Shown: one piece after another, positions 1 through 48,691 of the stretch
Numbering within the stretch: the stretch's first letter is position 1
Layout of the letters: the number at the start of each line of letters is the position of its first letter
Program-made: the position numbers and the translations under genes
Notes under the pieces: model-generated
What the model saw: the letters and a program-made list of their open reading frames with translations, nothing else
What the model was told of the DNA's origin: nothing
Databases searched by the model: none
Assembly: GCA_938045545.1 (NCBI GenBank)
Contig: CALIBN010000007.1
Coordinates: forward strand, 1 to 64,000
Length of the DNA: 64,000 bases
Direction of reading: 5' to 3'
From: an uncultured archaeon
GTDB lineage: Archaea; Thermoproteota; EX4484-205; JAAOZP01

Positions 1-670
1 GTTTCTAACGAACTCCTGCCATCTCTTTTCATCACTATTGGGGTGAGCCCGGTCATCTCCAAGTAGAGCCTTTCACTAGCCTCTGCTCTGATTACTGACC
101 TTGGCATTCTTATCCTGTCCAGCTGCAGCCCGTCTACATCATAGTTTGAAACTATTTCCTCGACGATCGACAGCAGCCTATTAACATACTTCTCGCTAGA
201 CGGGTCGACTCAACCGTTTTCGCCGCTTGCTGATGAAACCGCTAACTCGGGGTTTTTCAGATAGAAGTTTGGCTGCGTCTCCCCCTCTGCCAGCGCGTTT
301 ACATACGGGTATATCTGAAGTCCGTATTCCCTCGCTTTTGCGCAACATCCTTCAAAAGATCTCAGCTGTATTTCCCGGATAGTGGAGCATGCTTGGATTC
401 ATAGTAAACGTATCCCAAGGGGTCTTTAACTAGAAAAAAGATGGCGTCAATCCCCGCTTCTTTAAGAGAATTGAAGGCTTCGTCAACCTTTCTCAACCAT
501 TCTGTTCTTTCACTAGGCCAGTAGTCGCTATACATTCCCAACCAGACTCCTACGGTGAAATCCTTTTTTTCAGAAGAGCTTGGAGCGTTTAGCGTATTCC
601 GCATTGCTGAGGCCAACAGTATCGGAAAGAGTATGAGAACACTGTTCCTCAACCCTTACTCGAGAAACAT
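1..670 (-). pseudogene. GHL10 (DUF187/YddW-like) glycoside hydrolase pseudogene, runs off window start
   Basis: Manual translation beyond ORF 362..652 gives ...AGIDAIFFLVKD...APLSGKYS*DLLKDV/AKAREYGLQIYPYVNALAEG...NPELAV...G*VDPSSE...LLSIVEEIVSNYDVDGLQLDRIRMP, a GHL10-type sequence. In-frame TGA at 364-362 and 212-210, at least 2 frameshifts, hydrophobic N-terminus. Confidence 0.8.
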
Positions 671-742
671 GTGGCGACCGCCTTATTTAAAATCTATTTT
701 TAACCGGAAGTCTTAAACACGGTGTGAAAAGCCTTGTTCTAC

Positions 743-1474
743 ATGAGGCACAGCCTCCCCCCTGCTTCTTACGCTCGTCTTGCTGATTCTGGAAACGGTT
801 TTTATTATCAGGCGAGGCTCTGAAGAACCTGGCTCCAGACTATCCTGAATCAGTATGGAAGCCGGCTCTTAAGTCAAATTTTCCGAAGACGATAGGGAGG
901 CTAATGGGTTAAGGATTAGGTGGTTCATTATTCGCGACGTAGAGGGTGAAGCTCAGCCTGCCATAAACTGGTTTAAAGATCTCAGGGCTAAGGCTTCCTC
1001 GCATTACATTGTTGCTTACGATGGCACTGTCTACCAGATGGTTTAGAAGAAGGATATAGCTTGACACGCCGGTAACTGGGCTTACAACGAGCATTCTATC
1101 GGTATTGAGCATGCCGGCTATGCCGATCGAAAGATGTTTACCGAGGAAGAGTATAGGGCTTCAGCCAAGCTGGTAGCCTATCTCATTAAGAAGTACAATG
1201 TTTCACTAAACTGGCCTTAGGGCTGGCTTCCGCAGACCTTAACCGGGGGAGCAGAATAATAGGTCACGACCAGGTTCATGAACCTGGTGATCCTAGTGTC
1301 GGTGGAGGCAAGAGTCATCACTATGACGCTGGCGAGAACTGGGATTGGGTGCACTATATGAAGCTTGTGAAGCAATATTGTGAGGGTCGGCCCAAGGCCA
1401 GTTTAGAAAGTGAAAGCGGTAACGGCAAGCTTCAATACTCTTCTAGAAAATGTTTTCAACTTATGAACAATTAA
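743..1474 (+). pseudogene. N-acetylmuramoyl-L-alanine amidase (Amidase_2/AmpD-like) pseudogene with N-terminal membrane anchor
   Basis: Stitched frames: LLLTLVLLIL...DYPESVWKPALKSNF/SEDDREANGLRIRWFIIRDVEG...AINWFKD...ASSHYIVAYDGTVYQMV*KKDIA*HAGNWAYNEHSIGIEHAG...YRASAKLVAYLIKKY.../IIGHDQV...SHHYDAGENWDWVHYMKLV. Stops at 1044, 1062 and 1218 plus frameshifts. Confidence 0.88.
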
Positions 1475-1505
1475 GGTTTTTAAGCGCTTTCCCAATTCTG
1501 TTTAT

Positions 1506-2696
1506 GTGTCTAAGAGAAGCACAATGCTTGCTCTTCCAGTTATGATAGTGCTTCTGACAGCTGTATCATTACTGCTGTTGAACAGGATGATGACAAGGGA
1601 AGAGCCTCCGAAGCCGGAGGCGAGAGGCGTATTCCTATATATGTACGAGTTTCCCAACAGGTCTGTCGCGAGGAATTTCACCTCCTATGTAAGCAAGATC
1701 AAGGATAGCGGGTTCAACATTGTGCTGCCCTTCGTCATCCACGCGGGGGGCTTGGCTGACTACAGGAGTAAAATAGTACCTGTCGACACGGATTATCTTA
1801 GCAATTTTAAAAGCGACGAGGATCCTTTGAAAATGGTTGTTGAGGAAAGTCACAGGAACGGCCTGAAGGTCTGGGCGTGGGTTGTGGGCTTCAGGACAAG
1901 CAGGTCAGTGCTGCTTCAACATCCTGACTGGGGGATAGTTAACGAGAGTGGTGAGGACCAGCTTTCACACGGTTCCTTCCATCAATGGGGATGGTACTAC
2001 TTGTCGCCGGCAAGCGAGGGCGCCAGGAACTATATAAAGTCCTACATCGTTGAGTTGGTGGAGGAGTATGGTGTTGACGGTATAAACATAGAGGATGATT
2101 TCGGTTTTCCACCGGGCATTGAGGCTGACTTCAGCGAGGACGCGAGAAGGTCTTTCGAATCGTTCCTCGGCAGGAAGGTGCAGAACTGGCCTCGAGACGT
2201 GCTGGTCGGGGGAAGCCTAAGGGGCGAGTGGATTGATTGGAGAGCTAAGATTGTAACGGATTTTTTAAGAGAGATTAGGGATGCTGTGAAACAGATTAAT
2301 CCGGACGTGGTTTTGTCTGTGGATGTTTCTCACGATTCGGATTGGAGCAGGCAGGCTATGGGTGTTGATTGGAGCGAGTGGGTGCGGCAGGGTCTTGTCG
2401 ACGTGGTTTGCCCAATGCTTTACCACAGAGATAACAACATGCCTGTTAAATGGGTTGAAGATACTGTTAGGAGTATAGTTGAGCGGGTTGAGAAGATTAA
2501 TGGCAACGTCCTGGTTATGCCTTGCGTCGGCGGCTCGTTGTCTACAACTGGTAAAATGCCGGGCTGGGAGTGGGTTGAATCAGTTAAGGGGGCGATGAGA
2601 GGGGGAGCATCCGGGGTCCTTGTCTTCGCGGATGTTTGCCTGGATTCTTCAGGAGCATGGGTTGAACTCGCAAACTACTTTCAGCCTTCAGAGTAA
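1506..2696 (+). CDS. GHL10 (DUF187) family glycoside hydrolase, N-terminal membrane anchor
   Basis: EARGVF, GFNIVL, DPLKMVVEESHRNGLKVWAW, LSPAS, YGVDGINIEDD, DWSEWVRQGLVDVVCPMLY; TM helix at about aa 8-26; TATA-like TTTTTAAG at about 1477. Confidence 0.85.
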   Translation: MSKRSTMLALPVMIVLLTAVSLLLLNRMMTREEPPKPEARGVFLYMYEFPNRSVARNFTSYVSKIKDSGFNIVLPFVIHAGGLADYRSKIVPVDTDYLSNFKSDEDPLKMVVEESHRNGLKVWAWVVGFRTSRSVLLQHPDWGIVNESGEDQLSHGSFHQWGWYYLSPASEGARNYIKSYIVELVEEYGVDGINIEDDFGFPPGIEADFSEDARRSFESFLGRKVQNWPRDVLVGGSLRGEWIDWRAKIVTDFLREIRDAVKQINPDVVLSVDVSHDSDWSRQAMGVDWSEWVRQGLVDVVCPMLYHRDNNMPVKWVEDTVRSIVERVEKINGNVLVMPCVGGSLSTTGKMPGWEWVESVKGAMRGGASGVLVFADVCLDSSGAWVELANYFQPSE

Positions 2697-7493: not shown

Positions 7494-7926
7494 GCTGCTG
7501 AGAGTTGGAGGGAAAACCTTGTTATAAATGTTGTTGAAAAACTCCAGTGTCTATTTTGCCTGTCGAAGGAACGCGTATCAGACAACTCTAAGAACAGGTA
7601 AAAAAGCCATTTAGGACTTGTTTAGCGAGCACTTTACTTAAAATACTATGTTCTCCTGCAACACCAAGAAATACTGTCCAAGCGGCTTTTCACCCAAATA
7701 GGCTTGAATCGTTCAAGGCTGTTATGACTGTTATCCTGAAAACCCATTTGGGCTGAAATGATTAGTTTCCCAAGCCCCTGTTAAATACCTCCGAGGTTTC
7801 GATAAGTGTTGAAGCGTTGGAATTCGTGCAGCCTTCTAACGTTTTTTTTAAAAAAACGTAAGCCTCAGGAATGTTTCCAGAGGCACTTCGGGTTAAGTTT
7901 TTAAAGCGTGTTTGAAGATTTTTAAC

Positions 7927-8679
7927 ATGAGGTTTAATTGGCCGAATGGCTTTAAAGGAGCTGTTTCACTGACTTTCGACGATGGTTTGCCTTCGCAATT
8001 GAATCTAGGTGTGCCTTTGCTGGAGGAATACGGCTTTAAGGCCACGTTCTATGTGAATCCGAGAGACAACTATGAGAATGTTTTAAAAAAATGGAGAGAG
8101 GTTGCTGAGCGTGGCCATGAAATAGGTAATCACAGTGTTACACATCCCTGTTCCTGCAACTTTTCAGGAGACCCTTGTTGCAGAGGGCTGGAGAACATGA
8201 CCCTGGAGGATATTCGCCTGGACATATTTGAGGCTCACGAAAGAATTAGACGGTTCATACCTGATGGTAGCCGGACATTCGCATACCCATGTTACCAAAC
8301 CAGTGTCGGCAGAGGCTTGAATAAGAAGAGCTACGTACCGATCGTGGCTGAGATCTTTCAGGCTGCTAGGGCTTCCGGCGAAAAGGGCTATCCTAATTCA
8401 CCGCTTGCCTGCGACCTGCACGAGCTATGGTCATGGTCTGCTGACCGGATGAGATGCGAAGAGATGATAGGCTTAACAGTTAAAACTGTTTACGAGGGCA
8501 GGTGGGCCATATTCACTTTCCACGGTATTAACGAGGGGCACCTGCCTGTTTCAAGTGAAGATCTATCAGGCTTTTTAAGATTCCTGCATACGCATCGCGA
8601 CGAAATATGGGTTGCTCCTGTGGTAGAGGTTGCTGAGCATATAGCGGGTGAAAGAAAAAGGCTGGGCCTAGTTTTCTGA
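7927..8679 (+). CDS. Polysaccharide deacetylase (CE4/NodB-like)
   Basis: SLTFDDG, KATFYV, GHEIGNHSVTHP, FAYP, FTFHG. Start moved from 7912 to ATG 7927 based on TATA at about 7898. Confidence 0.88.
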   Translation: MRFNWPNGFKGAVSLTFDDGLPSQLNLGVPLLEEYGFKATFYVNPRDNYENVLKKWREVAERGHEIGNHSVTHPCSCNFSGDPCCRGLENMTLEDIRLDIFEAHERIRRFIPDGSRTFAYPCYQTSVGRGLNKKSYVPIVAEIFQAARASGEKGYPNSPLACDLHELWSWSADRMRCEEMIGLTVKTVYEGRWAIFTFHGINEGHLPVSSEDLSGFLRFLHTHRDEIWVAPVVEVAEHIAGERKRLGLVF

Positions 8680-8693: not shown

Positions 8694-9911
8694 CTACTTC
8701 CAGAAGGATGGTGGGGCTACCGCAGGCTCCCCTTCTATTTCTAAGACGACCACGGTGTCTATCGGGTCTGGTGCGCGTGACGGTAGTCCACGTATGAACA
8801 GTCGGTCTTCCTTCTGCTCAAACCCGAGCTTTCTTCCGCTTGCCAGCATGTACGCCTTCAAAACCCTGTTCTTAATTCCGGCTACGCACATTTCTCTTCC
8901 AGGCCAGAACATGACGTGCACGTACACCTTGCTACCTTTCATAGTCACCTGGCCCAGATGAGGCTGGGGGAAGGGCGCAGCCCCAGCGCCATATATGGAC
9001 TCGCCGTTTCGCCGCAGCCATCTTCCAACAGCCCTCATTCTAGCCGCCTGCTCCAGCGGAATAGTGCCGTCTGCCTTCGGCCCAACGTTCAGCAGAAAAT
9101 TCCCGTTTCCCGAGACGCATTTAACCAGGTTCCTCACAAGCTGCATAGGCGATTTTAGATTCGGGTCACCAGGATGATAACCCCACCAGAGGTCATCTAT
9201 GGTCATGCATGCTTCCCAAGGCCTGTCGGAGCCTTCTATTCGTTGTTCAGGAGTGTCGAAATCCCCCGGTAATCCAGACCTGTTGTTTATTATGATTTCC
9301 GGTTGGAGGCTGCGAACCATCGCGTTAAGCTGTTCGGATCCCCATGCATCCGGACCGTGAGGCCACCCGCCGTCATACCAAAGTATGTCTATTTTTCCAT
9401 AATTAGTCATAAGCTCTCTCACCTGGGTGTGAACATAGTTCCGAAACTCTTTCCAGCCGTCTGGATTCTTTTCAGGCCCATCCCAATACGCTGGCCAACG
9501 CCAGTCCAGCAAGGAATAGTAGAAGCCGATGCGCATACCTGCTTTCCGGCAGGCCTCAACATACTCTGCGACGAAATCCCTTCTCGCAGCCGTCTTGACA
9601 GAAGTGAAGTCGGAGACACTGCTGTCCCACAGGCAGAAACCATCGTGATGCCTCGTGGTTAAAACCATGTACTTGGCTCCAGCCTGTTTAGCGAGCGCAA
9701 CCCATTTGTCCGCGTCAAACCTTTTAGGGTTAAACTTTTGAGCTAGACGAGCGTACTCGTCCTTAGGTATTCGCTCACAATACATTACCCATTCTCCACG
9801 AGCTGGAATAGCGTAGAGCCCCCAGTGGATGAACATGCCGAACCTTGCTTCAAGCCACCATGACATTCGCTTTTCAACCGTCTTCTTCTCCTCCTGAATC
9901 GAACCAGACAT
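8694..9911 (-). CDS. Alpha-L-fucosidase (GH29), no signal peptide
   Basis: RFGMFIHWG, GAKYMVLTTRHHDGF, FYYSLLDW, LWYDG, INNR, WEAC, NFLLNVGP. Confidence 0.93.
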   Translation of the reverse strand: MSGSIQEEKKTVEKRMSWWLEARFGMFIHWGLYAIPARGEWVMYCERIPKDEYARLAQKFNPKRFDADKWVALAKQAGAKYMVLTTRHHDGFCLWDSSVSDFTSVKTAARRDFVAEYVEACRKAGMRIGFYYSLLDWRWPAYWDGPEKNPDGWKEFRNYVHTQVRELMTNYGKIDILWYDGGWPHGPDAWGSEQLNAMVRSLQPEIIINNRSGLPGDFDTPEQRIEGSDRPWEACMTIDDLWWGYHPGDPNLKSPMQLVRNLVKCVSGNGNFLLNVGPKADGTIPLEQAARMRAVGRWLRRNGESIYGAGAAPFPQPHLGQVTMKGSKVYVHVMFWPGREMCVAGIKNRVLKAYMLASGRKLGFEQKEDRLFIRGLPSRAPDPIDTVVVLEIEGEPAVAPPSFWK

Positions 9912-10043
9912 TTTAAAAACCGTTACTTAATGCTATAATTTAAGCCTTTTGCCAGCCCTTTGTTTCTAGCCAAAAACCGTATTTTCCATGATCTTAAATC
10001 TGAAGGAAAAATATATAGCTTTTTATTAAGTAGGAGAACTGAA

Positions 10044-11012
10044 ATGGATGTTCTAACCATCGGCGAAATGCTTGTTGAATTCATAAGGAAAGGGAGAGAC
10101 ATGCCTCACTACGAGACCGGTGAGTATGCTGGTCCGTTTCCAAGCGGTGCTCCTGCGATATTCATAGATGCTGCCTCAAGGCTCGGCTTGAAATCAGCCA
10201 TAATCGGTGCTGTTGGAAACGATGATTTCGGGGGTCTTTTAAAGAGAAGGCTGGCTAATGATAATGTTGATATCACGCACGTGTTCACTCGTGAAGAATA
10301 CACTACTGGAATAGCTTTCGTAACATACTTCTCAGACGGTAGTAGGAGGTTCGTATTTAATCTGAGGCATTCCGCAGCCGCCAGAATCAAGCCGGAGGAT
10401 GTAGATGAGGATTTTGTGAAAATGTTTAAGGTTCTACACATCATGGGTTCCACGCTCTCCATGCATGAGGAAATAAGGGAATCTTGCTATAGGGCTGTTG
10501 AAATAGCTAATAGGACGGGCATGATAGTTACTTACGATCCAAACCTTAGAGCTGAGCTGATAGAGCCTTGGATGATAAGCAAAATATCTAAAAAAATTTT
10601 GGAGGTCGCTGAGATCGTAATGCCTTCTAAGGCTGAGCTGTATGACCTAACTGGAAAGAGAAATCTTGAGGAGGCTTCGAAGGAAATATTTAAGCATGGA
10701 GTGAAACTGTTAATAGTGAAAATCGGTGAGAGAGGCTCCATAGGTATAAGTAGACAGGAGACTGTTTTCGTGCCGGCCTACATCGTTCCAGAGGTTGACC
10801 CCACCGGGGCCGGTGATGCTTTCGATGCTGCAGCAGTATACGGCTATTTAAAGAAATGGGGGCTTAGAGAAATTCTTGAATTCGCCAATGCCGCTGGTGC
10901 ACTGAAAGTTACTAGAATGGGCCCCATGGAGGTTCCAGAGGACATTTCAGAGATCGAACATCTCATGAAAACATGTAGGAAAAGGGAGGTTGAAAACGTT
11001 TTTCAGGATTAG
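10044..11012 (+). CDS. PfkB-family sugar kinase
   Basis: IGEMLVEF, PSGAPAIF, GAVGNDDFG, YDPNLR, VDPTGAGDAF. Start at ATG 10044 preferred over 9960. Confidence 0.9.
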   Translation: MDVLTIGEMLVEFIRKGRDMPHYETGEYAGPFPSGAPAIFIDAASRLGLKSAIIGAVGNDDFGGLLKRRLANDNVDITHVFTREEYTTGIAFVTYFSDGSRRFVFNLRHSAAARIKPEDVDEDFVKMFKVLHIMGSTLSMHEEIRESCYRAVEIANRTGMIVTYDPNLRAELIEPWMISKISKKILEVAEIVMPSKAELYDLTGKRNLEEASKEIFKHGVKLLIVKIGERGSIGISRQETVFVPAYIVPEVDPTGAGDAFDAAAVYGYLKKWGLREILEFANAAGALKVTRMGPMEVPEDISEIEHLMKTCRKREVENVFQD

Positions 11013-11150
11013 ATGGTTCACCCTAGAATGAAACTAAGCCGAAGCCCTCTTCTTGGACCCGGTTTTTCGCACGGGAACTGCAGTATTACTCTCTCATGTT
11101 GAAAAATTCCAACCGTAGATTTTTAAAGTGGAAGACTCTTCTCTCAGAAG

Positions 11151-11786
11151 ATGATAATTAGGAAGTTTGTAGTAGGCCGGTTGCAAACCAATTGTTACTT
11201 GCTTGTTTGTCCGGAAACACGGCAAGCCATCGTGATAGATCCAGGTTTTGCTCTCGAGACCGAGGTTCAGATCATCCTTGGCGAAGCAGAGAAATATGAT
11301 GCAGATATTAAGTATATTGTCAATACGCATTGGCATCCTGACCATACTTCGGGAGACGAATGGTTGAAGAGGGAAACCGGCGCGTTAGTTTTAATCCATA
11401 AGGACGATGTGCCCATGCTGGTGGCCACGCGGGAAGTCGAGCCGTTGTTCGGCATTCGAGTTCAACCCATTACGCCTGATGCTACTTTAACCGATGGAAG
11501 CACTATAGTTTTCGGGAAGATTGATCTTAGGGTTGTGCACACGCCCGGCCATACCGAGGGGAGCATATCGCTGCTCAACCAGCTCGCCATCTTTACGGGA
11601 GATACTCTTTTCGCGGGTTCAGTTGGAAGGACTGACCTGCCCGGTGGCTCGTTCGGTAAACTCATGGACTCGATATGGAGAAGGCTAATGATCCTTCCCG
11701 ATGAAACCAAGATATATCCGGGCCACGGCCCATCCTCAACCATTGCAAGGGAAAAGAAGACGAATCCGTTTTTAACATCGATGTAG
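11151..11786 (+). CDS. MBL-fold metallo-hydrolase (glyoxalase II/YcbL-like)
   Basis: TNCY, IDPG, THWHPDH, HTPGHT, FTGDTLF, GRTDL, YPGHG. Confidence 0.9.
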   Translation: MIIRKFVVGRLQTNCYLLVCPETRQAIVIDPGFALETEVQIILGEAEKYDADIKYIVNTHWHPDHTSGDEWLKRETGALVLIHKDDVPMLVATREVEPLFGIRVQPITPDATLTDGSTIVFGKIDLRVVHTPGHTEGSISLLNQLAIFTGDTLFAGSVGRTDLPGGSFGKLMDSIWRRLMILPDETKIYPGHGPSSTIAREKKTNPFLTSM

Positions 11787-11831
11787 CGAGCTTGCTAGAA
11801 ATCCAAGTGAAAAGTCTTTTTTTCTCATGAG

Positions 11832-12638
11832 TTACATCCACCATCTTTTAAGAGCCTCGAGTATATCGTCGCCCTCGATCTTAATCGTCCTAGTATCGAT
11901 CTTCTTCACGCCCGGCCTTTCTGATAGCGTTTCGGCGGAGCTCTTATTTTCCTCCGTAAACTCGACTATCAACTCCACCGGCTTTCCCACTTTAAACGGC
12001 TTTATACTGCTCACCCTTGTCACCGCGTTCTTCGCGCCCTCCTTGATCATCGCCCTCGCCTTAGCAGGCGTTACGCTTATCGCCGCCCCGTGACTTAACC
12101 CCTCTTTAACGGCTACTGTTTCCAACCCGGGTATCAGTGATTCCGCCTCTTGGCATGCCGCCTTATCTCCCGTGACCAAGACCAGCGGAACGTCGAAATG
12201 CCCTGCTACGGCAGCAAATATCGCTATCTCGCCCGCTTTAACCCCGTTTATCCAAACGTTTTGAATAGCGATATGGCTCTCAGTGTGGCTCAAGTGAGCA
12301 TTCTTCACGCCGGCCATGGCGTGCTGCCCTATTATGAAGGCTGCTTCAAAACCCTTCTCCAAGCCCCATGGTAGTAGGAGGGGCCTGCCTGCAAGAAGCT
12401 TAGCCTCGGGGTTTAACTCTTCTATGTTTATCCCGCCGGCTCCGTGGCCGTCTACTACGAGCACTTCCCTCGCCCCTTGCTCTAACGCTCCCTCAATAGC
12501 AGCATTAACCTCTTGGGTCAAGAGCTTCCTCGAGAGGTCGTACCACCTGCCCTTGGGACTAGCGTGCTCGTCGAAGCTGAAAACCCCTGCAACTCCCTCA
12601 AGATCCGTCATGATCCATAATCTCATCTCATTCCTCAC
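11832..12638 (-). CDS. dppA: D-aminopeptidase, peptidase family M55
   Basis: DLEGVAG, EVNAAIEG, VDGHG, GQHA, SHT, GE, VTGD, VKEG. Confidence 0.88.
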   Translation of the reverse strand: MRNEMRLWIMTDLEGVAGVFSFDEHASPKGRWYDLSRKLLTQEVNAAIEGALEQGAREVLVVDGHGAGGINIEELNPEAKLLAGRPLLLPWGLEKGFEAAFIIGQHAMAGVKNAHLSHTESHIAIQNVWINGVKAGEIAIFAAVAGHFDVPLVLVTGDKAACQEAESLIPGLETVAVKEGLSHGAAISVTPAKARAMIKEGAKNAVTRVSSIKPFKVGKPVELIVEFTEENKSSAETLSERPGVKKIDTRTIKIEGDDILEALKRWWM

Positions 12639-12689
12639 CGCTTACCAGTGCTCAAAAGAAGCAATTAAAATTTGCTGAAAGCCGATGGC

Positions 12690-13748
12690 CTACGTCGTGC
12701 GCTCAAGGCCTTCGCTCAACCATTTCGCCATGAATTCATACGATTTCCTCCCGCTTATCTCGTGTCTCCCCTCGAAGAAGTCTGCGTCCAGTCTATCCTC
12801 GGCTTTCAGCAGGGCATAGGCCCTGCGTATTCGCTCATAGGCGTACTTCGCGGCCTCGATTGGGAATATTGGGTCCTTAGAACCGCTCTCTATCAGCAGG
12901 GGCCTCGGCGCGATTAGGGCCGCCACATCGTACATCTCGCCGTATTTGAGTATCCCCGGTACGTAATTGTCTATGCAGTGGTCCATCGCCAGTATGCTAC
13001 TTCTGAAGGTGTTTATGTAGCCGCTTATAACTACGACCCTAACCCTGTCGTCTAGCGCTGCAGTGAAAAGCGTCGTGGTACCGCCTCCCGATATCCCCAT
13101 CATGCCTATCCTTGAATGGTCGACATCGTCTCTAGTAAAAAGGTAATCCACCACCCTCATAGCATCCCATACCCTTCGGCCTATGGTCGTCGTCCCCATC
13201 ATCAACGCCCATAGGGAAAGCATTTTACACGAGCTCTGCTCGTTTCCCTTCGCGATATCCTCCTTGGTCCTGCGCTCCCCGAAGCCGCTCTGTTCAGGCA
13301 CTATTACGAGAAGCCCGCGTTTAACTAGCTCCAGCGCGAAATCCTTCTGGTATCCTCTGGATGAAGGATCAATACGATCGGTTCCATCCTCCCAAATGCC
13401 CACTAAGTCATCCTTGCCGTAACCGTGGCCGTGCATGGCCACTGCGGCGGGGAGAGGTTTTTCACGCTTCTCCGGGATCAAAACGTACGCAGGTATTGAG
13501 GTGTAAGGATCGCTTCTCAGGACTACTTTTTCCCTAACGTAGCCGGGGTACTGCTTCCTATCTACCGTTTGAGGGGAAATCTCAGAACGTTCGAAGAAAT
13601 CGAGCCCAATAAGCTCAGCAAGCTTTTCCCTGAAGCCTAGGTGCCAAGCCTTCCACTCCGAAAGATCTTTAGCATCGAAGGAGAAGACCCTCTTAACCTT
13701 CTCATACTTTTCTAGAAATATCGTTAAAGGATCGTAGTCCGCATTCAT
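12690..13748 (-). CDS. Alpha/beta hydrolase (acetyl-xylan-esterase-like / abhydrolase_7-like)
   Basis: PAYVLIP, HGHG, GFGER, GISGGG nucleophile elbow, HCIDNYVPG, IAPRPLL, DPIFP, GRH. Confidence 0.8.
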   Translation of the reverse strand: MNADYDPLTIFLEKYEKVKRVFSFDAKDLSEWKAWHLGFREKLAELIGLDFFERSEISPQTVDRKQYPGYVREKVVLRSDPYTSIPAYVLIPEKREKPLPAAVAMHGHGYGKDDLVGIWEDGTDRIDPSSRGYQKDFALELVKRGLLVIVPEQSGFGERRTKEDIAKGNEQSSCKMLSLWALMMGTTTIGRRVWDAMRVVDYLFTRDDVDHSRIGMMGISGGGTTTLFTAALDDRVRVVVISGYINTFRSSILAMDHCIDNYVPGILKYGEMYDVAALIAPRPLLIESGSKDPIFPIEAAKYAYERIRRAYALLKAEDRLDADFFEGRHEISGRKSYEFMAKWLSEGLERTT

Positions 13749-13845
13749 GCCTCTTAAGAGCTTTAACCTATTAATAAAGGTGATGTGAGGCCGGTAGGTC
13801 TAAGGCCAACAAAAACTTTAAAACCTATCTAAGGCCATGATCGCC

Positions 13846-14350
13846 ATGCCCTTACTCCTTTAATTTCGGTCCCGCTTTGGGTTTAGGTTTACCGCTGAGC
13901 AGTATCTTCATGTTCCGACATTCATTTTGATAAATGTCCTCATCGATTTAGAACCATTCCTTTTAATCCTCTTAGATTTGACATATTCTCTACATGGATG
14001 CTTGCACACTTTCTCGCTGGCTATCTCAATGGGCTTAGTTTTCGGTTATGTCCTGTATCTCCTTGAAAAATTTCTACATCCGTTCTACAAAATGCTCCTG
14101 CTGGAGACAGATGAGGACTTGAGGTCCTTCATTGTTGCTGGTGCTTTAGTGGGCGGGGCCTCATGTCCTCTTCGATTCCCAATTCCACAATGACATAAAA
14201 CCGTTCTACCCAATGGCAGAAAATCCACTCTATAATCCATTTCTAAGTCTGGAAATATACATACTTTGCATTTGGATGATGGTATTTGGAATGGTATACT
14301 ACCTTGGATTGCTGGGTCTTACAACCTACAGAAAACCGAAAAAGAAATAA
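13846..14350 (+). pseudogene. Frameshifted membrane protein (DUF4184/membrane-bound hydrolase-like, MPFTPFH-type)
   Basis: ATG 13846 gives MP../FGPALGLGLPL../YLHVPTFILINVLIDLEP...LHGCLHTF.../HVLFDSQFHNDIKPFYP..NPLY in shifting frames; ORF 13927..14193 is only the middle part. Confidence 0.65.
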
Positions 14351-14396
14351 CATCAGTCTAGTAATAAGATAATTATGAAAAAATAACTGGTATTTT

Positions 14397-15953
14397 TTAT
14401 TTGAGGATGTCCCATATGGGCCTCGGGTACTTGTTCTCGCCTAAGATGATGGGCTTCACATCGGTTATCTCACAGAAGTACTTCAATTCTTGAACGCGGT
14501 CTCCGGCGACGGCGTGGATATGGTTAGCCGGGAACATTTCTATGAACTCCTCATACGAGCATTTTAACCTGGCATGCACGTGCGGCCACGTGGGGTCGGT
14601 CTCCGAGTTTATCCTTCTCCTAGTTTCCTCGTCAAGCTCAATGCTCTCCCCTTTCACTATGATCATATAAATCTTATCTTCGAACAAGCCTAGTCTAGCG
14701 AAAGTTAGTTCTCCTGGGCCGGCGTCGAACGAGACCGAGGCCCCTCCAGCCTTAAAGTAGAGTTCTAAAGCAGGGTAGAGCGTAACCTTCCTCAGATTGT
14801 CCTTAGGGTCGAAGCTTCTCGAAGCATACCAGCTTGCATGGTTACCCGAGTTGCAGAAATCCCACACGTCCAAGTCAGGATGGTAAAGCCGAACATCCAT
14901 GAAGAGGACGGGTAGCCCGCCGCTGATATACTTCAGTATCTGCATGGTTAATGCTGCGAAAGCATCAGCTTCAGTAGCGCAGACAGTCGGCTCCTTCGGA
15001 CCGTTCCAGTCATACGGGTCGTTAAGCAACATCTCGGCGACATCAGGTATTACCACGTGTTCGGAAAGCTCCCTCTGGCCTTTTATCCCGCAGAAGTCGA
15101 ACCCCATCTCCTCGTTTATCCTCCTGACCGCAAGATACATTCTTATCTGCTTCCCGAGCGTTTCCCTCGTAAGCATTTTACCGTCGTATTTTATTTCTCC
15201 CACCTTTTCCTCCATCCATCTTAAGCCTTTCTCAACATCCTGATCGCTTATCTCCTTCATTTTCTTAACGAGGAGCAGCTGGTCGACCTGGCTTACAGTG
15301 GTTCCAAAAAACCTCTGTACCGGGACGAGATGGAAATAGCCCGTCTCCATCCCCATAGAATGCCCGCCATACATTCCGTAAACCTCATTCCTGATGTTTG
15401 TTGCAGCTATTGCCGCCATAACCCACTTCTTCACCTTCTCCTTTACCACGGGGTCTTCAGGGTCTCCGACAATCCTGTGCGTCCTGAAACCCGCCTGCCT
15501 CAGCGCGCCATCCGTAGCGAGCAGGCCAACGTTGCCCGGATACTTGCCCTCGTTGTTCGAAAGGCTGAGTATCGGCTTATCCTTCCCCAAGGTATTAACG
15601 AAGGGCCAAACCAGGTATGGAAAATCCCAGACGTTGTAGACTAGGATTACCTGCCTAACCCCCTTGCTCAGGAATTCCTCTCCAACCCTCCTGGCGGAAT
15701 TTATCGAGTTTATGAGCTCCGATGATACAACTGTCTCCGGGGAACCGCCGTCTGAAAACCTTATAGAATCCCTGATGAACCGGCTCCAGTTTTCAACAAC
15801 CCTGTAACATTTCTCATAGTAGTTCGGGTAAACATGTTTCCTCTCGTCGAGAAGCATCGTCAAACCTATTTTAGTATTCTTCATTTTTCCATCGAACAGA
15901 TCCATATTTCTGCTTCTATTAACTTTTTCTCTCGAGACCGCCAGCCCAACCAT
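14397..15953 (-). CDS. fucI: L-fucose/D-arabinose isomerase family protein
   Basis: PGNVGL, SMGM, GIKGQRE, LNDPYDWNG, ATEAD, MDVR, PTWPH, ANH (E/D/H Mn ligands). True start may be 15905 or 15884. Confidence 0.82.
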   Translation of the reverse strand: MVGLAVSREKVNRSRNMDLFDGKMKNTKIGLTMLLDERKHVYPNYYEKCYRVVENWSRFIRDSIRFSDGGSPETVVSSELINSINSARRVGEEFLSKGVRQVILVYNVWDFPYLVWPFVNTLGKDKPILSLSNNEGKYPGNVGLLATDGALRQAGFRTHRIVGDPEDPVVKEKVKKWVMAAIAATNIRNEVYGMYGGHSMGMETGYFHLVPVQRFFGTTVSQVDQLLLVKKMKEISDQDVEKGLRWMEEKVGEIKYDGKMLTRETLGKQIRMYLAVRRINEEMGFDFCGIKGQRELSEHVVIPDVAEMLLNDPYDWNGPKEPTVCATEADAFAALTMQILKYISGGLPVLFMDVRLYHPDLDVWDFCNSGNHASWYASRSFDPKDNLRKVTLYPALELYFKAGGASVSFDAGPGELTFARLGLFEDKIYMIIVKGESIELDEETRRRINSETDPTWPHVHARLKCSYEEFIEMFPANHIHAVAGDRVQELKYFCEITDVKPIILGENKYPRPIWDILK

Positions 15954-15990
15954 GGAACGACAACGCTAGCCGGGTTGAATGATAGGCTTG

Positions 15991-17085
15991 CTATAGGCGT
16001 TTTTTACACTGTTCTCTTAAAAATCTTAAAAATTCATCCTCGAACAGCTTAAGCCTGAGCGGCAGTGGTTCCCGCCATTCTTTTTTGAAGGCAAAGCCCG
16101 CGGTAATCCAGAGCTCACCGGGGCGACGCTCAAACACATAGGGGTAGCTTAACTGCCCACCTCTCTGCCTAGCGATAACCACCGGCTTAGTCCAGTTTTC
16201 ACCATCGTCCTCAGAAAAAGCTATTGAGAGCTCCTCCCTGTGCCAGGATGTGGGCCTTTCCGAAGCTGGTCCTGGTTTAGCTTTCTCCCATACTCTTCCC
16301 TCAGGGTTTAAACGGTTCCATACGAGGACTAGACGGTTGCTCTTCAACCTTAACAGGTATCCTGGAGAATTGCTAGCGTCTATCCGGCTTGGCTTAATTA
16401 TCCGCCAGTATTCTCCACCATCTTCGGAGAAAGCCTGCCAAAACCGGTCAAGAGTTGTCCTTATAAGCATGAGTAAGCGTCCGTCGCTCAACTCCGCTAC
16501 AGTGGGCTCCAACGCTCCATCATGGTGTCCGTGTCCACCAAGGTCGATGAAGTTGCTTCTCCTCCATGTTTTACCCTCATCATCCGAAATCAGGGAGCAG
16601 GCTATGAGTCGGCCAGGGTTTCTGGTTAAGTGTTCAACTGTGGCGACGATCCTCCCGCTCCTGGTCTGGATGAATCCGAAGAAACACGCATTGTAGCCGT
16701 CTAGAAGCCTCTGTCTGTCAACCCATGTCTTGCCACCGTCCAGGCTGCGGGCTGCCCACAATTCCAGCCGGCAGTCATCCTTAGGTTCGCCCTTTTCATC
16801 ATCCCAACTAAATTTGTAGGTTGAGAAATCCGCGTAAACTGTTACGAGCGTCTTTCTCTTAGTCTGTAGTATGTGATACGAGCCGGGCTCCTCACCGTTC
16901 ACGCCCGGTAATACAGATATTGGAGGCGACCAGCTTTTCCCGTCATCCCAGCTTATCTTAACCCCTTCACTGTCTATGGTCATTAAAACGTCATTGTCAA
17001 GAATGATGAAGGGGCCGTTTTTGCTTGCTTCAAGCGGGTGGCAGAGTGGATGCACCCACCGCCCGTTTCCAGATGAACTGTTCAT
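15991..17085 (-). CDS. BNR/Asp-box beta-propeller, sialidase-like, cytoplasmic
   Basis: Five Asp boxes (SWDDGKSW, SLDGGKTW, SDDEGKTW, SEDGGEYW, SEDDGENW), EPTVAEL, C-terminal SYP. Confidence 0.8.
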   Translation of the reverse strand: MNSSSGNGRWVHPLCHPLEASKNGPFIILDNDVLMTIDSEGVKISWDDGKSWSPPISVLPGVNGEEPGSYHILQTKRKTLVTVYADFSTYKFSWDDEKGEPKDDCRLELWAARSLDGGKTWVDRQRLLDGYNACFFGFIQTRSGRIVATVEHLTRNPGRLIACSLISDDEGKTWRRSNFIDLGGHGHHDGALEPTVAELSDGRLLMLIRTTLDRFWQAFSEDGGEYWRIIKPSRIDASNSPGYLLRLKSNRLVLVWNRLNPEGRVWEKAKPGPASERPTSWHREELSIAFSEDDGENWTKPVVIARQRGGQLSYPYVFERRPGELWITAGFAFKKEWREPLPLRLKLFEDEFLRFLREQCKKRL

Positions 17086-18281
17086 CTGCGATCAAACCCC
17101 CTTTCGAAGCTGATTGCTCTTCTCGGGCATATGGATAGGCAGAGACCACAGTTATCGCATTTCTCCTGATCCGGCTCCGGTGTGCTGGCGGGGCCTTCAC
17201 CTAAAGCATCGTAGGGGCAAACCCTTATGCAGACACCGCACTTGACGCATTTCTCAGCATCAATGTAAAGCTGGAATCGTTTTCTTCTTTCAAGCCTCGC
17301 TAAAGGCACGATTTTGTCCAGAGAGATGCCTGAAAAATCGACTATGCTCCGAAACCCTTTATTGGTCATCCACTTCTCAATGCCCCCCAGCATTTCCGGA
17401 ATAATCTTCAACCCGTTTATCATGATTGCTGTACACATCTGAACTGCCGACGCGCCTACGAGAATAAGCTGCACAGCGTCCTCCCACTTTGATACTCCGC
17501 CAGAGCCTATTATGGGCACGCCAAGCTTCTCCATGGCTATATGTGCAGTCCAGCCGACACTAATGGGTGTTTGCCAAGGGCCCCCGTATCCCCCGAAGCC
17601 CCCCCAGGAGGTTGGCTGCATTGTCTCCAGGTCGACGATTAAGCCTTGAAACCTGGCTGTTGAAACAAGAGCGCTAACACCGGATGAAACCATGATCTTC
17701 GCTAATTCAACCGGGTTCGCACCCTGGGGTGTCAACTTGCCTATTATGGGTAGTGACGTGGCTCGCCTAACCGTCTTGACTACTTCTGAAACTTTCTCAG
17801 GGCTGGAGGATACGGCTCTCCCCATCAACCCGCCCTTCTCCAAATGTGGACATGAAAGGTTGAGCTCAACCATGTCTACACCGGCTTCCTCAACAAGCCT
17901 GGCCAGTTTCTCCCATTCCTCAAAAGTTCTGCCAGCAATGCTTGCTATTATCACGCCCATGTAAGCCTTGACCTCTTTCTTTACTTCCCTGATTTGCCTG
18001 AGCCAGAGTTCAGGCTTATACTCTGACATCAGGTCTATAGAGTAGAAAGAGTAAAACCTGTTTCTTAAAGCATCCTCCGGGTTGACCACGAGCATCCTCG
18101 GCTTAGGCTGAACCTGCTGCGTCACGTCGTAAGTTATGGTTTTAGTAACAGCTCCCGCGGCACCAGCTCTTATACATTTCAAAACGTGTTGCGGTGAGAG
18201 CGTTGGAGGCCCAGAGGCCACGATCAGAGGATTCTTAAACTCCACCCCGGATATGTTGACGGACAGGTCTATTCCAGCCAT
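17082..18281 (-). CDS. Dihydropyrimidine dehydrogenase PreA/DHODH-like FMN enzyme with C-terminal 2x[4Fe-4S]
   Basis: NPLIVASGP, KTI, ELNLSCPH, KLTP, GGYGG, GSGGV, VQMCT; CVKCGVCIRVCP and CDNCGLCLSICP. Confidence 0.82.
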   Translation of the reverse strand: MAGIDLSVNISGVEFKNPLIVASGPPTLSPQHVLKCIRAGAAGAVTKTITYDVTQQVQPKPRMLVVNPEDALRNRFYSFYSIDLMSEYKPELWLRQIREVKKEVKAYMGVIIASIAGRTFEEWEKLARLVEEAGVDMVELNLSCPHLEKGGLMGRAVSSSPEKVSEVVKTVRRATSLPIIGKLTPQGANPVELAKIMVSSGVSALVSTARFQGLIVDLETMQPTSWGGFGGYGGPWQTPISVGWTAHIAMEKLGVPIIGSGGVSKWEDAVQLILVGASAVQMCTAIMINGLKIIPEMLGGIEKWMTNKGFRSIVDFSGISLDKIVPLARLERRKRFQLYIDAEKCVKCGVCIRVCPYDALGEGPASTPEPDQEKCDNCGLCLSICPRRAISFERGFDRR

Positions 18282-18285
18282 TTCC

Positions 18286-19221
18286 CTATAGCAGCTTCAG
18301 GCTTTTCAAAGCCTGTTTTATGGCTTCCTTCTCCTTCTCTGACACTGGCTGCAAAGGTGGCCTAACATACGATGTTTTCAACACTCCCATCATTACAAGA
18401 GCCTCCTTGAGACGCGCCCTATAGTCTCTAACTGGCTGTGCGAAAATGGCTTCTTCCAAGGGTATCAGCTCCTCCCATATTTCCCTAGCCTCAGTTACCC
18501 TGCCTTTAGCGAATAAGTTGAACATTTCAACCTGCTGGTCTACAGCTATTGTCCCGAAGCCCAGCAACCCGCCTTCCGCGCCAAGCACGAGGGACTCGTA
18601 TATGAAGTTATCATTCCCCGTGAGAATCATTATCTTCCTGCCTGCTTTCTTCAAAGTGTGGGCGACGTTGACGAACCTCCTAGCGTCGAAAGAAGCCTCC
18701 TTAATCGCTATAACGTTCTTAATACTGGCGAGTCTTAACAGTGTTTCAGGCGTGAAGACTACGCCGCCTAAAGCTTGTTGCAGTTGGAACAGGATGATTG
18801 GTAAACCAACTTTCTCAGATATCTCATAGTGATAGTTGTAGATTACGCTGTCGTTCGGCTCACCTACGAAGGCTGGATGTGGGAAAACCAGCAATCCGTC
18901 TGCACCCGCCTCCTTAGCTTCCAACCCGAGTCTCACCGCCTCCATAGTGTTTCGAGCATGCAGCCCTGCGATTACAGGCATCCTTCCAGCTATAATCTTA
19001 GAGAAGACTTTCAGAATTTTTACGCGTTCCTCAGGGTAAAGGTGAGGCCCTTCTCCCGTATCAACATTGACCGCAACCCCACCGATACCATGTTTCACCA
19101 GCCACCTTACGTAGTCTTCAAGCTGCTCATAGTCAACCTCGAAATCCTTCGTCATAGGTGTTAGAGTCGCTGGGATTAGGCAGTAGTTTTTCAAAGGGTT
19201 CTGAGCCCGCATCCTGGTCAT
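18286..19221 (-). CDS. DapA/NAL-superfamily Schiff-base enzyme (aldolase or dehydratase)
   Basis: TPM..D..VD, TGEG, GADG, IKEAS, TGND, RPPL. Start 19221 inferred from TATA at about 19250. Confidence 0.85.
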   Translation of the reverse strand: MTRMRAQNPLKNYCLIPATLTPMTKDFEVDYEQLEDYVRWLVKHGIGGVAVNVDTGEGPHLYPEERVKILKVFSKIIAGRMPVIAGLHARNTMEAVRLGLEAKEAGADGLLVFPHPAFVGEPNDSVIYNYHYEISEKVGLPIILFQLQQALGGVVFTPETLLRLASIKNVIAIKEASFDARRFVNVAHTLKKAGRKIMILTGNDNFIYESLVLGAEGGLLGFGTIAVDQQVEMFNLFAKGRVTEAREIWEELIPLEEAIFAQPVRDYRARLKEALVMMGVLKTSYVRPPLQPVSEKEKEAIKQALKSLKLL

Positions 19222-47551: not shown

Positions 47552-48691
47552 TTACGACTCGAACAAGATTCCTCCTATGAAGGTCATTCGAACCCTGAAG
47601 TCTTCCCTTATTACAACCATGTCAGCATCCTTTCCTTCCTCTATGCTTCCTTTACACTCTTCAACACCGAGCAACCTAGCCGGGTTATGCGAGGCTACTT
47701 TAGCTACTGAGCTTAAAGGAACACCCGTAAACTTGACGAAGCGTCTAGCCAGCTCGTTCATGCCTGCTGATGTTCCAATCAATATGCCGTCCACGTATCT
47801 CGCCGTCCCGTTTGAAGATATGAATTCAATACCGTTGTAAACATACTTGCCGTCAGGTAAACCCGTCGACCTCACTCCATCTGTTATCAATACGATTCGG
47901 TCTTCACCCAAAATCCTTGCCGCGAATCTCACCATGGATGGGTGAATGTGAACCCCATCGGATATCATCTGTACAGTCACATCCTTAGACTCGAATATGG
48001 CTAGCACTGGACCTGGAGCCCTATGGTGAATAGGCGGCATAGTGTTGAAGAAATGAGTAACATGCTTAACACCCATTCTTATGGCCTTCAAGGTCTCCTC
48101 GTAGTCTGCTGAAGAATGCCCGAGGGACACTATCACCCTGTTTTCAAGCAGAAGGCTTATAACCTGCTCCGCGCCCTCAAGCTCAGGAGCCACAGTCATC
48201 ATCCTGAGCCAACCCTTACACTTATCCATTATCTCAGACAGAACTTTAACCGAAGGCTTACAGATCGAGGATTCTTGGATCATTCCTCTTCTCTCCATGG
48301 AGATAAACGGGCCTTCCAAATGGAATCCTAGAAACCTAGCTCCGTTTAAGCCCCTCGAGACCCCGTTCAACGCAGCCTCTAAATGCTTGTTTTCAAAACC
48401 CGGCTTATAGACGGTGGTTGCAAGGAAACCGGTGACCCCAAACTTGGCGCATGTTTCAGATATAGTGCTGACTGCTTCCTCATCCTCGTCGAGAATGTCA
48501 GCTCCTCCTGCACCCTGTATGTGAACATCGATAAAGCCTGGGAACAAAAAGTCACCTTCCAGGTCAATACTCTCCCCCTCAGTGTAGCCGTAGATTGGTT
48601 TACCGATCTTCCTTATCCTCCCGCGGTCGATTAGAACGTCTCCAAAGGTTTCCCCCCAAGGGTTAACTATCCTAGCGTTTTTAATTAGCAT
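47552..48691 (-). CDS. nagA: N-acetylglucosamine-6-phosphate deacetylase
   Basis: PGFIDVH, HLEGPF, TVAPE, GHS, THFFN.M...HHR, DGVH, TD, NPA. Confidence 0.9.
   Translation of the reverse strand: MLIKNARIVNPWGETFGDVLIDRGRIRKIGKPIYGYTEGESIDLEGDFLFPGFIDVHIQGAGGADILDEDEEAVSTISETCAKFGVTGFLATTVYKPGFENKHLEAALNGVSRGLNGARFLGFHLEGPFISMERRGMIQESSICKPSVKVLSEIMDKCKGWLRMMTVAPELEGAEQVISLLLENRVIVSLGHSSADYEETLKAIRMGVKHVTHFFNTMPPIHHRAPGPVLAIFESKDVTVQMISDGVHIHPSMVRFAARILGEDRIVLITDGVRSTGLPDGKYVYNGIEFISSNGTARYVDGILIGTSAGMNELARRFVKFTGVPLSSVAKVASHNPARLLGVEECKGSIEEGKDADMVVIREDFRVRMTFIGGILFES

Follow-up and report, generated by a model that had tools for sequence, protein, structure and literature searches.

Peptidoglycan makes up a large share of microbial necromass, and the organisms that mineralise it in hot, anoxic sediments remain poorly known. 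In E. coli, the amidases AmiA, AmiB and AmiC act before the GHL10 protein DigH (YddW), which degrades the denuded glycans of the septum (PMC12288456). In C. difficile, the GHL10 lytic transglycosylase Cwp19 (PDB 5oq2), an autolysin with CWB2 wall-binding repeats, provides the only solved GHL10 structure; its products are 1,6-anhydromuropeptides (PMC6016235) and its acidic pair Asp195-Asp196 sits where beta-strand 4 ends (PMC5765458). In B. subtilis, the murQ-murR-murP-amiE-nagZ-namZ operon, with an exported amidase and glycosidases, NamZ, a NagZ-type GH3 enzyme and MurQ, recovers peptidoglycan MurNAc (PMC8054146). Among archaea, modular peptidoglycan hydrolases of bacterial type have been described with a patchy distribution in 175 of 3,706 genomes (Strock et al., 2025, PLoS Biol; PMC12352652); discussion of such archaeal enzymes has until now cast them as weapons, and they were found through their cell-wall-binding domains.

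Here we describe a locus at the start of a 64-kb stretch of archaeal DNA (hereafter, the window) that carries a broken amidase gene between two GHL10 genes, designated GHL10_L and GHL10_R (Table 1). We consider it probable that the locus served as the membrane-anchored front end of a system that scavenges peptidoglycan from bacteria, and that this front end has decayed here while uptake and catabolism persist. Profile matches bear out the original prediction of its layout, with the amidase divergent from a broken GHL10 gene and directly upstream of an intact, anchored one, and both flanking genes are indeed GHL10 members and homologues of DigH (E = 1e-17 for GHL10_R and 4e-12 for GHL10_L). A glycan-catabolism island surrounds the locus and many other glycosidases are found in the window; a tRNA scan of the window found none. 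The polysaccharide deacetylase may belong to the module; its matches to PgdA/PdaB models are weak and far under the cut-offs. The D-aminopeptidase, which scores 184.6 bits against the NCBIfam DppA model (under its cut-off of 430), could act on D-amino-acid stem peptides.

Table 1. Positions of the locus and of functionally related genes in the window.
Feature	Position	Strand	Evidence or remark
GHL10_L pseudogene, N-terminal about 55%	1..655	-	Remainder on contig C15; pieces 72-83% identical to P0002
AT-rich intergenic spacer separating the divergent GHL10_L and amidase genes; presumed shared promoter region	656..742	.	Sequence read
Amidase_2 (N-acetylmuramoyl-L-alanine amidase) pseudogene, N-terminal membrane anchor	743..1474	+	Lesions and profile matches
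GHL10_R, intact 396-aa GHL10 glycosidase, N-terminal hydrophobic anchor	1506..2696	+	PF02638, 109.4 bits
Polysaccharide deacetylase (CE4-type)	7912..8679	+	PF01522, E = 5.2e-18; synteny with the module in the genus
D-aminopeptidase (M55, DppA-like)	11832..12638	-	PF04951, E = 8.8e-76
NagA, N-acetylglucosamine-6-phosphate deacetylase; follows MurQ in the pathway	47552..48691	-	TIGR00221, 312 bits (cut-off 225.65)

The locus would follow the same two-step logic as the E. coli system, and its GHL10 proteins are homologous to DigH, but they are only 23-26% identical to it and carry transmembrane segments rather than a lipobox as anchor. The amidase belongs to Amidase_2 whereas those of E. coli are Amidase_3, the coupling of amidase and GHL10 is hard-wired by gene fusion in archaeal relatives, and the archaeal enzymes would act on foreign walls, no peptidoglycan synthesis genes having been found in the genome. 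The archaeal genome shares NamZ and MurQ with the B. subtilis operon and places NamZ beside MurQ and a sugar kinase. The archaeal NamZ differs in lacking a signal segment and is probably cytoplasmic, a BadF/G kinase and AnmK stand in place of a MurP-type PTS, GHL10 and Amidase_2 proteins would be the extracellular enzymes instead of AmiE and NagZ, and the purpose would be feeding on foreign walls rather than recycling of the cell's own. An anhMurNAc product of the Cwp19 type would suit the archaeon's AnmK, although the archaeal proteins have transmembrane anchors where Cwp19 has wall-binding repeats. Finally, the module resembles the set of Strock et al. in placing peptidoglycan-cleaving enzymes, patchily distributed, in archaea without murein (PMC12352652). 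The definition used in that study requires a Pfam cell-wall-binding domain, so proteins such as these, which have none, would be missed; in its main text, leaving aside the supplementary tables, the terms Amidase_2, PF01510, GHL10, PF02638 and Brockarchae are absent.

Two stop-free pieces of the amidase gene match Pfam Amidase_2, at 873-1043 (E = 2.5e-4) and 1065-1217 (E = 3.6e-13), and a read-through of 909-1208, with one TGA and one TAG inside, reaches 87.5 bits against a cut-off of 26; the intact amidase of a congener (P0001) scores 112.8 bits with the same model (PF01510). Comparison with the intact orthologue P0005 (tblastn) places frame changes near 760, 835, 880 and 1220, hence at least four frameshifts, and in-frame stops at 1044 (TAG), 1062 (TGA) and 1218 (TAG). 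An N-terminal hydrophobic stretch is encoded at 747-845, and homology to intact orthologues stops near 1390. The original prediction, a hidden and multiply broken Amidase_2 gene with an N-terminal anchor, thus describes this gene well. The zinc-binding/catalytic His/His/Asp triad of such enzymes is known from AmpD and T7 lysozyme. The window copy has Arg in place of the first His, a residue conserved in 207 of 207 aligned domains, and the codon of an invariant-class Trp is TGA; H178, E125, N118 and D198 are retained there, and all these residues are retained by intact orthologues. The position equivalent to the Asp of the triad is visible in the alignment with AmpD. In a FastTree tree of the 207 amidase domains, all six rows named archaeal, and none named bacterial, fall in one clade of 48 rows (SH-like support 88), most of which, like those of its sister groups, carry no organism label. 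A phylogeny had been proposed as a means of finding the donor: it groups the archaeal rows, while the unlabelled sister groups of their clade leave no bacterial donor nameable. Dating of the pseudogene by dN/dS was likewise set aside, as the values of its pieces against the congener (0.07-0.27) show only that most divergence predates the decay.

GHL10_L is also broken. The window begins at a contig end, and the gene runs on into contig C15 through an exact 141-nt overlap. The broken divergent gene that had been predicted is real, and its extent had to be corrected. Over its whole length it has three frame changes and at least four in-frame stops, TGA among them. Its fragments score 13.8, 20.3 and 21.7 bits against PF02638, each under the cut-off of 27.9; the intact congener protein P0002, to which they are 72-83% identical, itself scores 78.7 bits.

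Could these breaks be artefacts of assembly or sequencing, reflect an altered code, or come from a bacterial or chimeric contig? That the window opens where a contig breaks off within GHL10_L, that the 141-nt overlap marks a branch point of the assembly graph, and that variants differ between runs would be in keeping with an artefact. Against this, an independent Logan contig from a second assembler (31.8x) covers 1-2700 in full, extends 160 nt further, differs by just six substitutions and one insertion, and reproduces all lesions; the comparison is between contigs, not raw reads, and the best-covering run may be the source sample itself. This answers, at the level of contigs, the concern over assembly error raised with the original prediction. 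Two further runs have more indels and a truncation in the amidase. Runs X2 and X5 cover only parts of the stretch at a depth of 2-7, and their gaps are uninformative. Stops of all three kinds occur across the amidase and GHL10_L, which excludes a single reassigned codon. Moreover, an invariant catalytic-site His is replaced in the amidase, neighbour genes (396 to 1031 aa) are unbroken and match their counterparts in congeners over the full length, and the amidase is missing altogether from three congeners. The genome is archaeal, not bacterial: it contains an archaeal SSU rRNA and L24e, is 92% complete with 1.4% contamination, and the locus shows synteny with long archaeal contigs. We regard an artefactual or recoded origin of the breaks, or a bacterial or chimeric contig, as very improbable.

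By contrast with GHL10_L, GHL10_R remains intact, as predicted: it is a full open reading frame with a hydrophobic segment at residues 7-25, and matches PF02638 at E = 2.4e-31 (cut-off 27.9 bits). It is 26% identical to DigH over 276 aa and matches Cwp19 at E = 5e-14, Cwp19 being the best PDB sequence match for both GHL10 paralogues. Its dN/dS of 0.13-0.155 is similar to that of neighbour genes, and it is under purifying selection. The two GHL10 proteins share only about 26% identity and the genes are not equivalent, GHL10_R representing a narrow archaeal lineage. The E-D-D motif of GHL10_R lines up with the D-D of DigH and Cwp19. In GHL10_L an Arg takes the place of the second Asp (D-R), so that it has no equivalent of Cwp19 Asp196; this Arg is found in 16 of 16 aligned members of the GHL10_L subfamily, with the first Asp invariant. 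Among the 150 best representatives the motif is D-Y in 109, D-R in 13 and D-D in one, and no motif was found in 26. Because D-Y prevails in these best relatives, the second Asp does not define the wider GHL10 family and only the first is general; for the same reason we dropped the idea that loss of the second Asp makes GHL10_L inactive.

Relatives of the host clarify the ancestral state. An intact syntenic copy, which the original prediction had suggested looking for, exists in one congener, where GHL10_R, the amidase and GHL10_L are all intact in the same order and adjoin the same FGGY kinase, FtsX-like protein, deacetylase and fucosidase. Three other congeners are without the amidase and their GHL10 genes abut, with spacers of 288, 95 and 173 nt. 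As both GHL10 genes are intact in two of these amidase-less congeners, they do not strictly need the amidase. The amidase is decaying or gone in four of the five congeneric genomes that carry the locus, so the module is, as had been proposed, decaying in this lineage. Here the amidase and GHL10_L recently became pseudogenes, while GHL10_R and the cytoplasmic pathway are still under selection.

Gene fusions identify the partner of the amidase. In other Thermoproteota, fusions join Amidase_2 to members of the GHL10_L subfamily in three Pfam-verified architectures: a type A amidase with GHL10_L, GH18 followed by a type A amidase and GHL10_L, and a PGRP-like type B amidase with GHL10_L. The two amidase types are unrelated. 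At the 14 GHL10_L loci of archaeal species representatives, eight are fused to an amidase, two are adjacent to one and four are without, and the nearest bacterial loci have an amidase in none of eight. Further fusions, Amidase_3-GHL10 (P0284) and Amidase_2-GHL10 (P0266), were found among 53 scanned representatives. Since it is GHL10_L that is fused elsewhere in Thermoproteota, domain architecture points to GHL10_L, not GHL10_R, as the true partner of the amidase. A Pfam search of P0001, P0002, the intact GHL10_R protein P0003 and the fusions found no cell-wall-binding domain, only Amidase_2, GHL10/GHL6/DUF4015 and GH18. Each of the three module proteins has an N-terminal hydrophobic segment, and GHL10_L and most fusions also carry C-terminal transmembrane anchors. 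Together with the 23-26% identity to DigH and Cwp19, the fusions suggest substrate and bond specificity, and a DigH-like preference for denuded glycan would be consistent with them.

The genome also encodes a MurNAc catabolic pathway. MurQ scores 365-397 bits, above three cut-offs (for example TIGR00274, 365.4 against 302), AnmK reaches 431.7 (NF007148, cut-off 387), and NamZ (NamZ_N 233.7 bits, NamZ_C 144 bits) adjoins MurQ and the BadF/G kinase. At 92% completeness, MurB (MurB_C), FtsW/RodA, Amidase_3 and LdcA (Peptidase_S66) were not found; the lack of MurB and FtsW/RodA agrees with the earlier statement that archaea do not make this polymer. The module was found in 17 of 401 genomes of the phylum sample. 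Every one of the 13 genomes that match the module strongly, from five families, encodes MurQ, whereas the phylum sample as a whole has it in 37 of 401; the counts are non-independent because the genomes are related. The GHL10_L gene of an unrelated family has GH3, BadF/G kinase and MurQ genes at a distance of 15 kb.

Building on the observed gene states and homologies, and on the fusions, co-occurrence and selection described above, we infer the following scheme. The host would be a Brockarchaeota-like thermoproteotal archaeon and the locus the extracellular front end of peptidoglycan feeding. In the ancestral state, three membrane-tethered enzymes would have faced outward: the Amidase_2 enzyme would remove stem peptides from MurNAc, GHL10_L and probably GHL10_R would then cleave the peptide-free glycan, and the fragments would be imported by a putative uptake step. 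In the cell, fragments would be trimmed by NamZ and GH3 enzymes, phosphorylated by AnmK and the BadF/G-type kinase, freed of the lactyl ether by MurQ and deacetylated by NagA. This species probably lives now on fragments pre-stripped by other organisms.

The original prediction had left room for the digestion of bacterial walls or for an attack on bacteria. If the module were a weapon, the surface amidase and glycosidases would lyse live bacteria on contact, and an arms race would account for their patchy gain and loss. Bacteria-killing archaeal peptidoglycan hydrolases are documented, with patchiness read as arms-race turnover (PMC12352652), and the present module is patchy too, both in the phylum sample and through repeated loss in the genus; its enzymes are predicted from their hydrophobic segments to be exported. 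However, they are tethered to the membrane rather than diffusible and have no cell-wall-binding domain, a glycan-catabolism island surrounds the locus, and the consistent presence of MurQ in module genomes, along with the placement of the module in a catabolic locus in one lineage, would be needless for a pure weapon. Because the module belongs to a broader and intact capacity for MurNAc catabolism, feeding is favoured over attack; wall digestion is thus the part of the prediction that gains support, attack losing ground, and we judge a weapon unlikely. Strock et al. interpret their enzymes as agents of killing (PMC12352652), whereas the present data favour catabolism. Killing and feeding are compatible with each other.

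It is also improbable, in our view, that GHL10 acts on another glycan (an alpha-glucan, a chitin- or PNAG-like polymer or an exopolysaccharide) and that the amidase was acquired independently. The family is not peptidoglycan-specific in the literature, since DogH, a GHL10 protein of D. radiodurans, has reported activity on starch, cellobiose and melibiose (PMC9967864), and PgaB, a PNAG deacetylase, is among the closest structural neighbours of Cwp19 (PMC5765458). Deinococcus proteins occur among the distant matches of GHL10_L patterns. The GH18 domain in some fusions, the persistence of the GHL10 pair without the amidase in two congeners and the many other glycosidases in the window would fit such a substrate as well. 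But at least three independent fusions to GHL10 (Amidase_2 type A, Amidase_2 type B and Amidase_3) are hard to explain without a common substrate, and both the position of GHL10_L near MurQ, GH3 and kinase genes in another family and the presence of MurQ in every genome with a strong module match argue for peptidoglycan.

Searches of the literature found, as judged by title and abstract, no prior description of archaeal peptidoglycan use through MurQ and AnmK, and nothing relevant on peptidoglycan in Brockarchaeota; the main text of the Brockarchaeota description does not contain muram, murein or amidase, though its supplements may list such genes. A MurNAc-specific catabolic pathway in 37 of the 401 sampled Thermoproteota, together with a family of fused amidase-GHL10 proteins, points to feeding on bacterial walls. 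The fusions offer an easy biochemical route to the bond specificity of GHL10, and thermostable wall-degrading enzymes may have practical use. More tentatively, and with somewhat less than an even chance, a set of thermophilic Thermoproteota may be dedicated consumers of bacterial murein, using a hitherto undescribed family of membrane-anchored amidase-GHL10(-GH18) enzymes that would combine peptide stripping and bare-glycan cleavage in one polypeptide and feed a complete pathway of AnmK, a MurK-like kinase, MurQ and NagA. The would-be consumers comprise the Brockarchaeota-like order and several lineages recorded as Desulfurococcales, Sulfolobales and Thermoproteales. If this is true, GHL10_L would be the first glycosidase clade with denuded-glycan specificity written into its domain architecture, and species such as this one, which lost the amidase yet retained uptake and catabolism, would cheat by using fragments that other organisms release.

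The 64-kb window is the start of a 152-kb contig (C7) in an assembly of 2.03 Mb and 51 contigs, and begins with two GHL10 (PF02638) genes, GHL10_L and GHL10_R, flanking an Amidase_2 (PF01510) pseudogene (see table). The multiply broken amidase of the original prediction is borne out by Pfam: two stop-free pieces match Amidase_2 by themselves (873-1043, E 2.5e-4; 1065-1217, E 3.6e-13), and a read-through of 909-1208, across one TGA and one TAG, reaches 87.5 bits (cut-off 26). Relative to the intact orthologue P0005, frame changes lie near 760, 835, 880 and 1220, and stops interrupt the gene at 1044, 1062 and 1218; an Arg occupies a His position that is invariant in 207/207 aligned domains. GHL10_L extends past the contig start onto contig C15 via an exact 141-nt overlap and has, over both contigs, three frame changes and at least four stops. 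The N-terminus of GHL10_R is hydrophobic.

Features of the window discussed in the text
Feature	Coordinates	Strand	Description
GHL10_L pseudogene	655-1	-	second GHL10 gene; frame changes and stops
Amidase_2 pseudogene	743-1474	+	Pfam matches of pieces and read-through; frame changes, stops
GHL10_R, intact, 396 aa	1506-2696	+	PF02638, 109.4 bits
Giant FtsX-domain membrane protein, 1031 aa	4398-7493	-	two genes from GHL10_R; syntenic in congeners
Sugar genes	8694-19254		alpha-L-fucosidase, PfkB kinase, fucose isomerase, BNR sialidase-like, DHDPS/NanA-like aldolase, GFO/IDH/MocA oxidoreductase
Methyltransferase group	20660-24555		MtaC-like corrinoid protein, methanol:cobalamin methyltransferase MtaB (E 7.5e-175), RACo reductive activator
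ABC exporters	25860-32306		three genes (fused TMD-NBD) grouped with a DUF1854 protein
NagA cluster	47552-52083		NagA adjoining AAC(3)-family N-acetyltransferase homologue, MFS transporter, YdjC-type carbohydrate deacetylase

Assembly error, a caveat of the original prediction, was addressed with assembled Logan contigs rather than reads. The lesions recur in a separate contig of run X1 (31.8x, 32.8 kb), possibly the source sample, which spans the whole 1-2700 stretch plus 160 nt beyond the window start and differs from the window by six substitutions and one insertion. The contig of run X2 has an additional 8-nt deletion at 1108, and that of X3, from another study, shows 44 substitutions and six gaps over 1050-2700 and diverges from the window sequence at position 1050, within the amidase. 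All three kinds of stop occur among the lesions, which excludes reassignment of a single codon. Nearby genes, encoding as many as 1031 aa, have no breaks and match their congeneric counterparts over the full length.

The host is archaeal, as had been assumed, and not bacterial: the archaeal SSU rRNA model matches its genome twice, an L24e gene is present, and MurB_C and FtsW/RodA were not found (genome 92% complete, 1.4% contaminated), which leaves the organism with no recognisable route to murein synthesis. Depositors titled the named relatives Thaumarchaeota, Candidatus Brockarchaeota, Thermoproteota or Nitrososphaerota archaeon. Both SSU rRNA matches are full-length (C36:171-1653 and C16:29805-31302) with differing scores (1545 vs 1445 bits), and may represent two operons or, alternatively, rRNA of another organism that ended up in the bin. 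Besides many glycosidases, the window encodes MtaB, MtaC and RACo, a group that fits the methylotrophy described for Brockarchaeota. The sugar genes look like a fucose and sialic-acid-type island, and the NagA cluster, whose AAC(3)-family homologue scores 146.8 bits (below the cut-off of 270), probably serves amino-sugar processing rather than drug resistance.

The locus is held by 4/16 other genomes of the genus. An intact syntenic copy, which the original prediction proposed to look for, exists in G008, with all three genes intact, in identical order and with identical neighbours. The amidase is absent from the other three congeners: G007 and G016 have intact GHL10_R and GHL10_L around spacers of 288 and 95 nt, and G002 has an intact GHL10_R, a 173-nt spacer and a frameshifted GHL10_L. 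GHL10_R is thus unbroken in 5/5 locus-bearing genomes, and its dN/dS (0.13-0.155) is similar to that of the adjacent FGGY kinase and FtsX-like gene (0.09-0.14). Amidase_2 occurs in 6/61 relatives, counting the genome under study; leaving that genome out, the tally is 1/16 for the genus, 4/6 for the sister family and 0/35 for the remaining genomes of the phylum sample. Elsewhere in the phylum, in another family, a type A amidase match (G095:C3:123662-124288) contains one internal TAA, perhaps as another instance of decay, perhaps through a start-site effect.

The partner of the amidase is GHL10_L, which is about 26% identical to GHL10_R. One sister-family genome encodes the amidase and a GHL10_L-type domain as a single fused protein, and a protein search with this fusion gave three architectures, with all named members from Thermoproteota: type A amidase-GHL10_L (about 590 aa), GH18-type A amidase-GHL10_L (860-925 aa) and PGRP-like type B amidase-GHL10_L (520-585 aa); the domains were verified by Pfam for seven proteins. 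A GHL10_L-motif scan of species-representative genomes returned 49 loci. The 14 archaeal GHL10_L loci (38-100% identity) comprise eight fused, two with an adjacent amidase and four without amidase; among the next eight (Endomicrobiia, Elusimicrobia, one cyanobacterial), an amidase lies within the flanks in 0/8. When 1.84 billion representatives were searched with a profile, 1183 proteins passed E <= 1e-30, and Pfam scanning of 53 of the best 150 revealed amidase combined with GHL10 in 3/53: P0247 and P0266 (Amidase_2) and P0284 (Amidase_3). In a FastTree phylogeny of 207 amidase domains, the window amidase groups with the two-domain fusions (starred clade, 30 rows), and the three-domain fusions form their own starred clade; a single 48-row clade (support 88, not starred), most rows of which are nameless, takes in every one of the tree's six rows with an archaeal name and no row with a bacterial one. 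Muramoyl-alanine amidases and GHL10 domains have been fused on several independent occasions, which is the strongest evidence in our analysis for one shared substrate.

E. coli DigH (YddW), a GHL10 protein reportedly first described by Yakhnina and Bernhardt in 2020, shares (annotated K-12 record) 26% identity with GHL10_R over 276 aa (E 1e-17) and 23% with GHL10_L over 367 aa (E 4e-12); the corresponding E values for C. difficile Cwp19 (PDB 5oq2) are 5e-14 and 0.0027. DigH is described as breaking down the peptide-free glycans that amidases leave (PMC12288456), and 1,6-anhydromuropeptides as the Cwp19 products (PMC6016235). At the position of the D-D motif discussed for Cwp19 (PMC5765458), GHL10_R has E-D-D, whereas GHL10_L has D-R in 16/16 members; since D-Y stands there in 109 of the best 150 relatives, only the first Asp is general. 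A dissenting report has the Deinococcus GHL10 protein DogH active on starch, cellobiose and melibiose (PMC9967864).

MurQ of the genome (365-397 bits) exceeds three curated cut-offs, and neighbours NamZ, a BadF/G-type sugar kinase, a PIG-L deacetylase and a GHL6 protein; this MurNAc-utilisation cluster (L072, C6:75000-92000) also includes a GNAT gene, and its GHL6 protein has 728 aa. No signal segment was found in NamZ. AnmK (431.7 bits, cut-off 387) adjoins a PBP4B-like beta-lactamase-family gene (L073, C14:8000-18312); the same contig encodes an HdrA-like Fe-S flavoprotein of 1165 aa whose sequence is split by an intein carrying a LAGLIDADG homing endonuclease domain (L073:2033-5527). There are four GH3 genes, and NagA lies inside the window. 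For B. subtilis, peptidoglycan digestion upstream of the MurQ step is reported to be the joint work of NamZ, NagZ and the amidase AmiE (PMC8054146). Neither Amidase_3 nor a second Amidase_2 was found in the genome under study, so that, with its amidase broken, the species is apparently without a working muramoyl-alanine amidase.

Among the 61 relatives, MurQ occurs in 17, NamZ in 15 and AnmK in 16, mostly in the same genomes; in an even phylum sample, MurQ occurs in 37/401 (36 above cut-off). MurQ is present in 13/13 genomes, from five families, that match the fusion query strongly, and in 1/4 with weak GHL10 matches only; kinship between genomes makes these counts non-independent. In an unrelated family, an OPT transporter, an Orn/DAP-type decarboxylase, GH3, a BadF/G kinase and MurQ lie within 17 kb of GHL10_L; an FtsX-like protein of 1471 aa that includes an M28 peptidase domain, likewise from an unrelated family, is encoded near GHL10_L and MurQ (L075:7060-11472). 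Bacterial wall hydrolases are controlled by FtsEX-type proteins, and FtsX-like proteins may have a link to the GHL10 loci.

The original prediction had allowed for feeding on bacterial walls or for attack on bacteria. A module that kills bacteria appears improbable: linkage to catabolic genes, tethering of the enzymes and the lack of wall-binding domains argue against it, and for these reasons feeding is favoured. Peptidoglycan hydrolases in archaea have already been published (PMC12352652); that survey demanded a cell-wall-binding domain (section 14), and its main text names none of these families. Among the literature covered by our search, no paper was found on amidase-GHL10 fusions or archaeal MurQ/AnmK catabolism; supplementary tables may list such genes, and the NCBI and JGI pipelines already label such proteins amidases or YddW-like.

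Sequence comparison makes it fairly likely that the ancestral module was a membrane-anchored front end of amidase and glycosidase scavenging bacterial murein, for which we infer substrates, bond specificity, step order and transporter. Murein fragments released by this front end would enter the archaeal MurNAc pathway. In the present organism, the amidase and its partner GHL10_L have become pseudogenes, while GHL10_R and the genes for catabolism have been retained.
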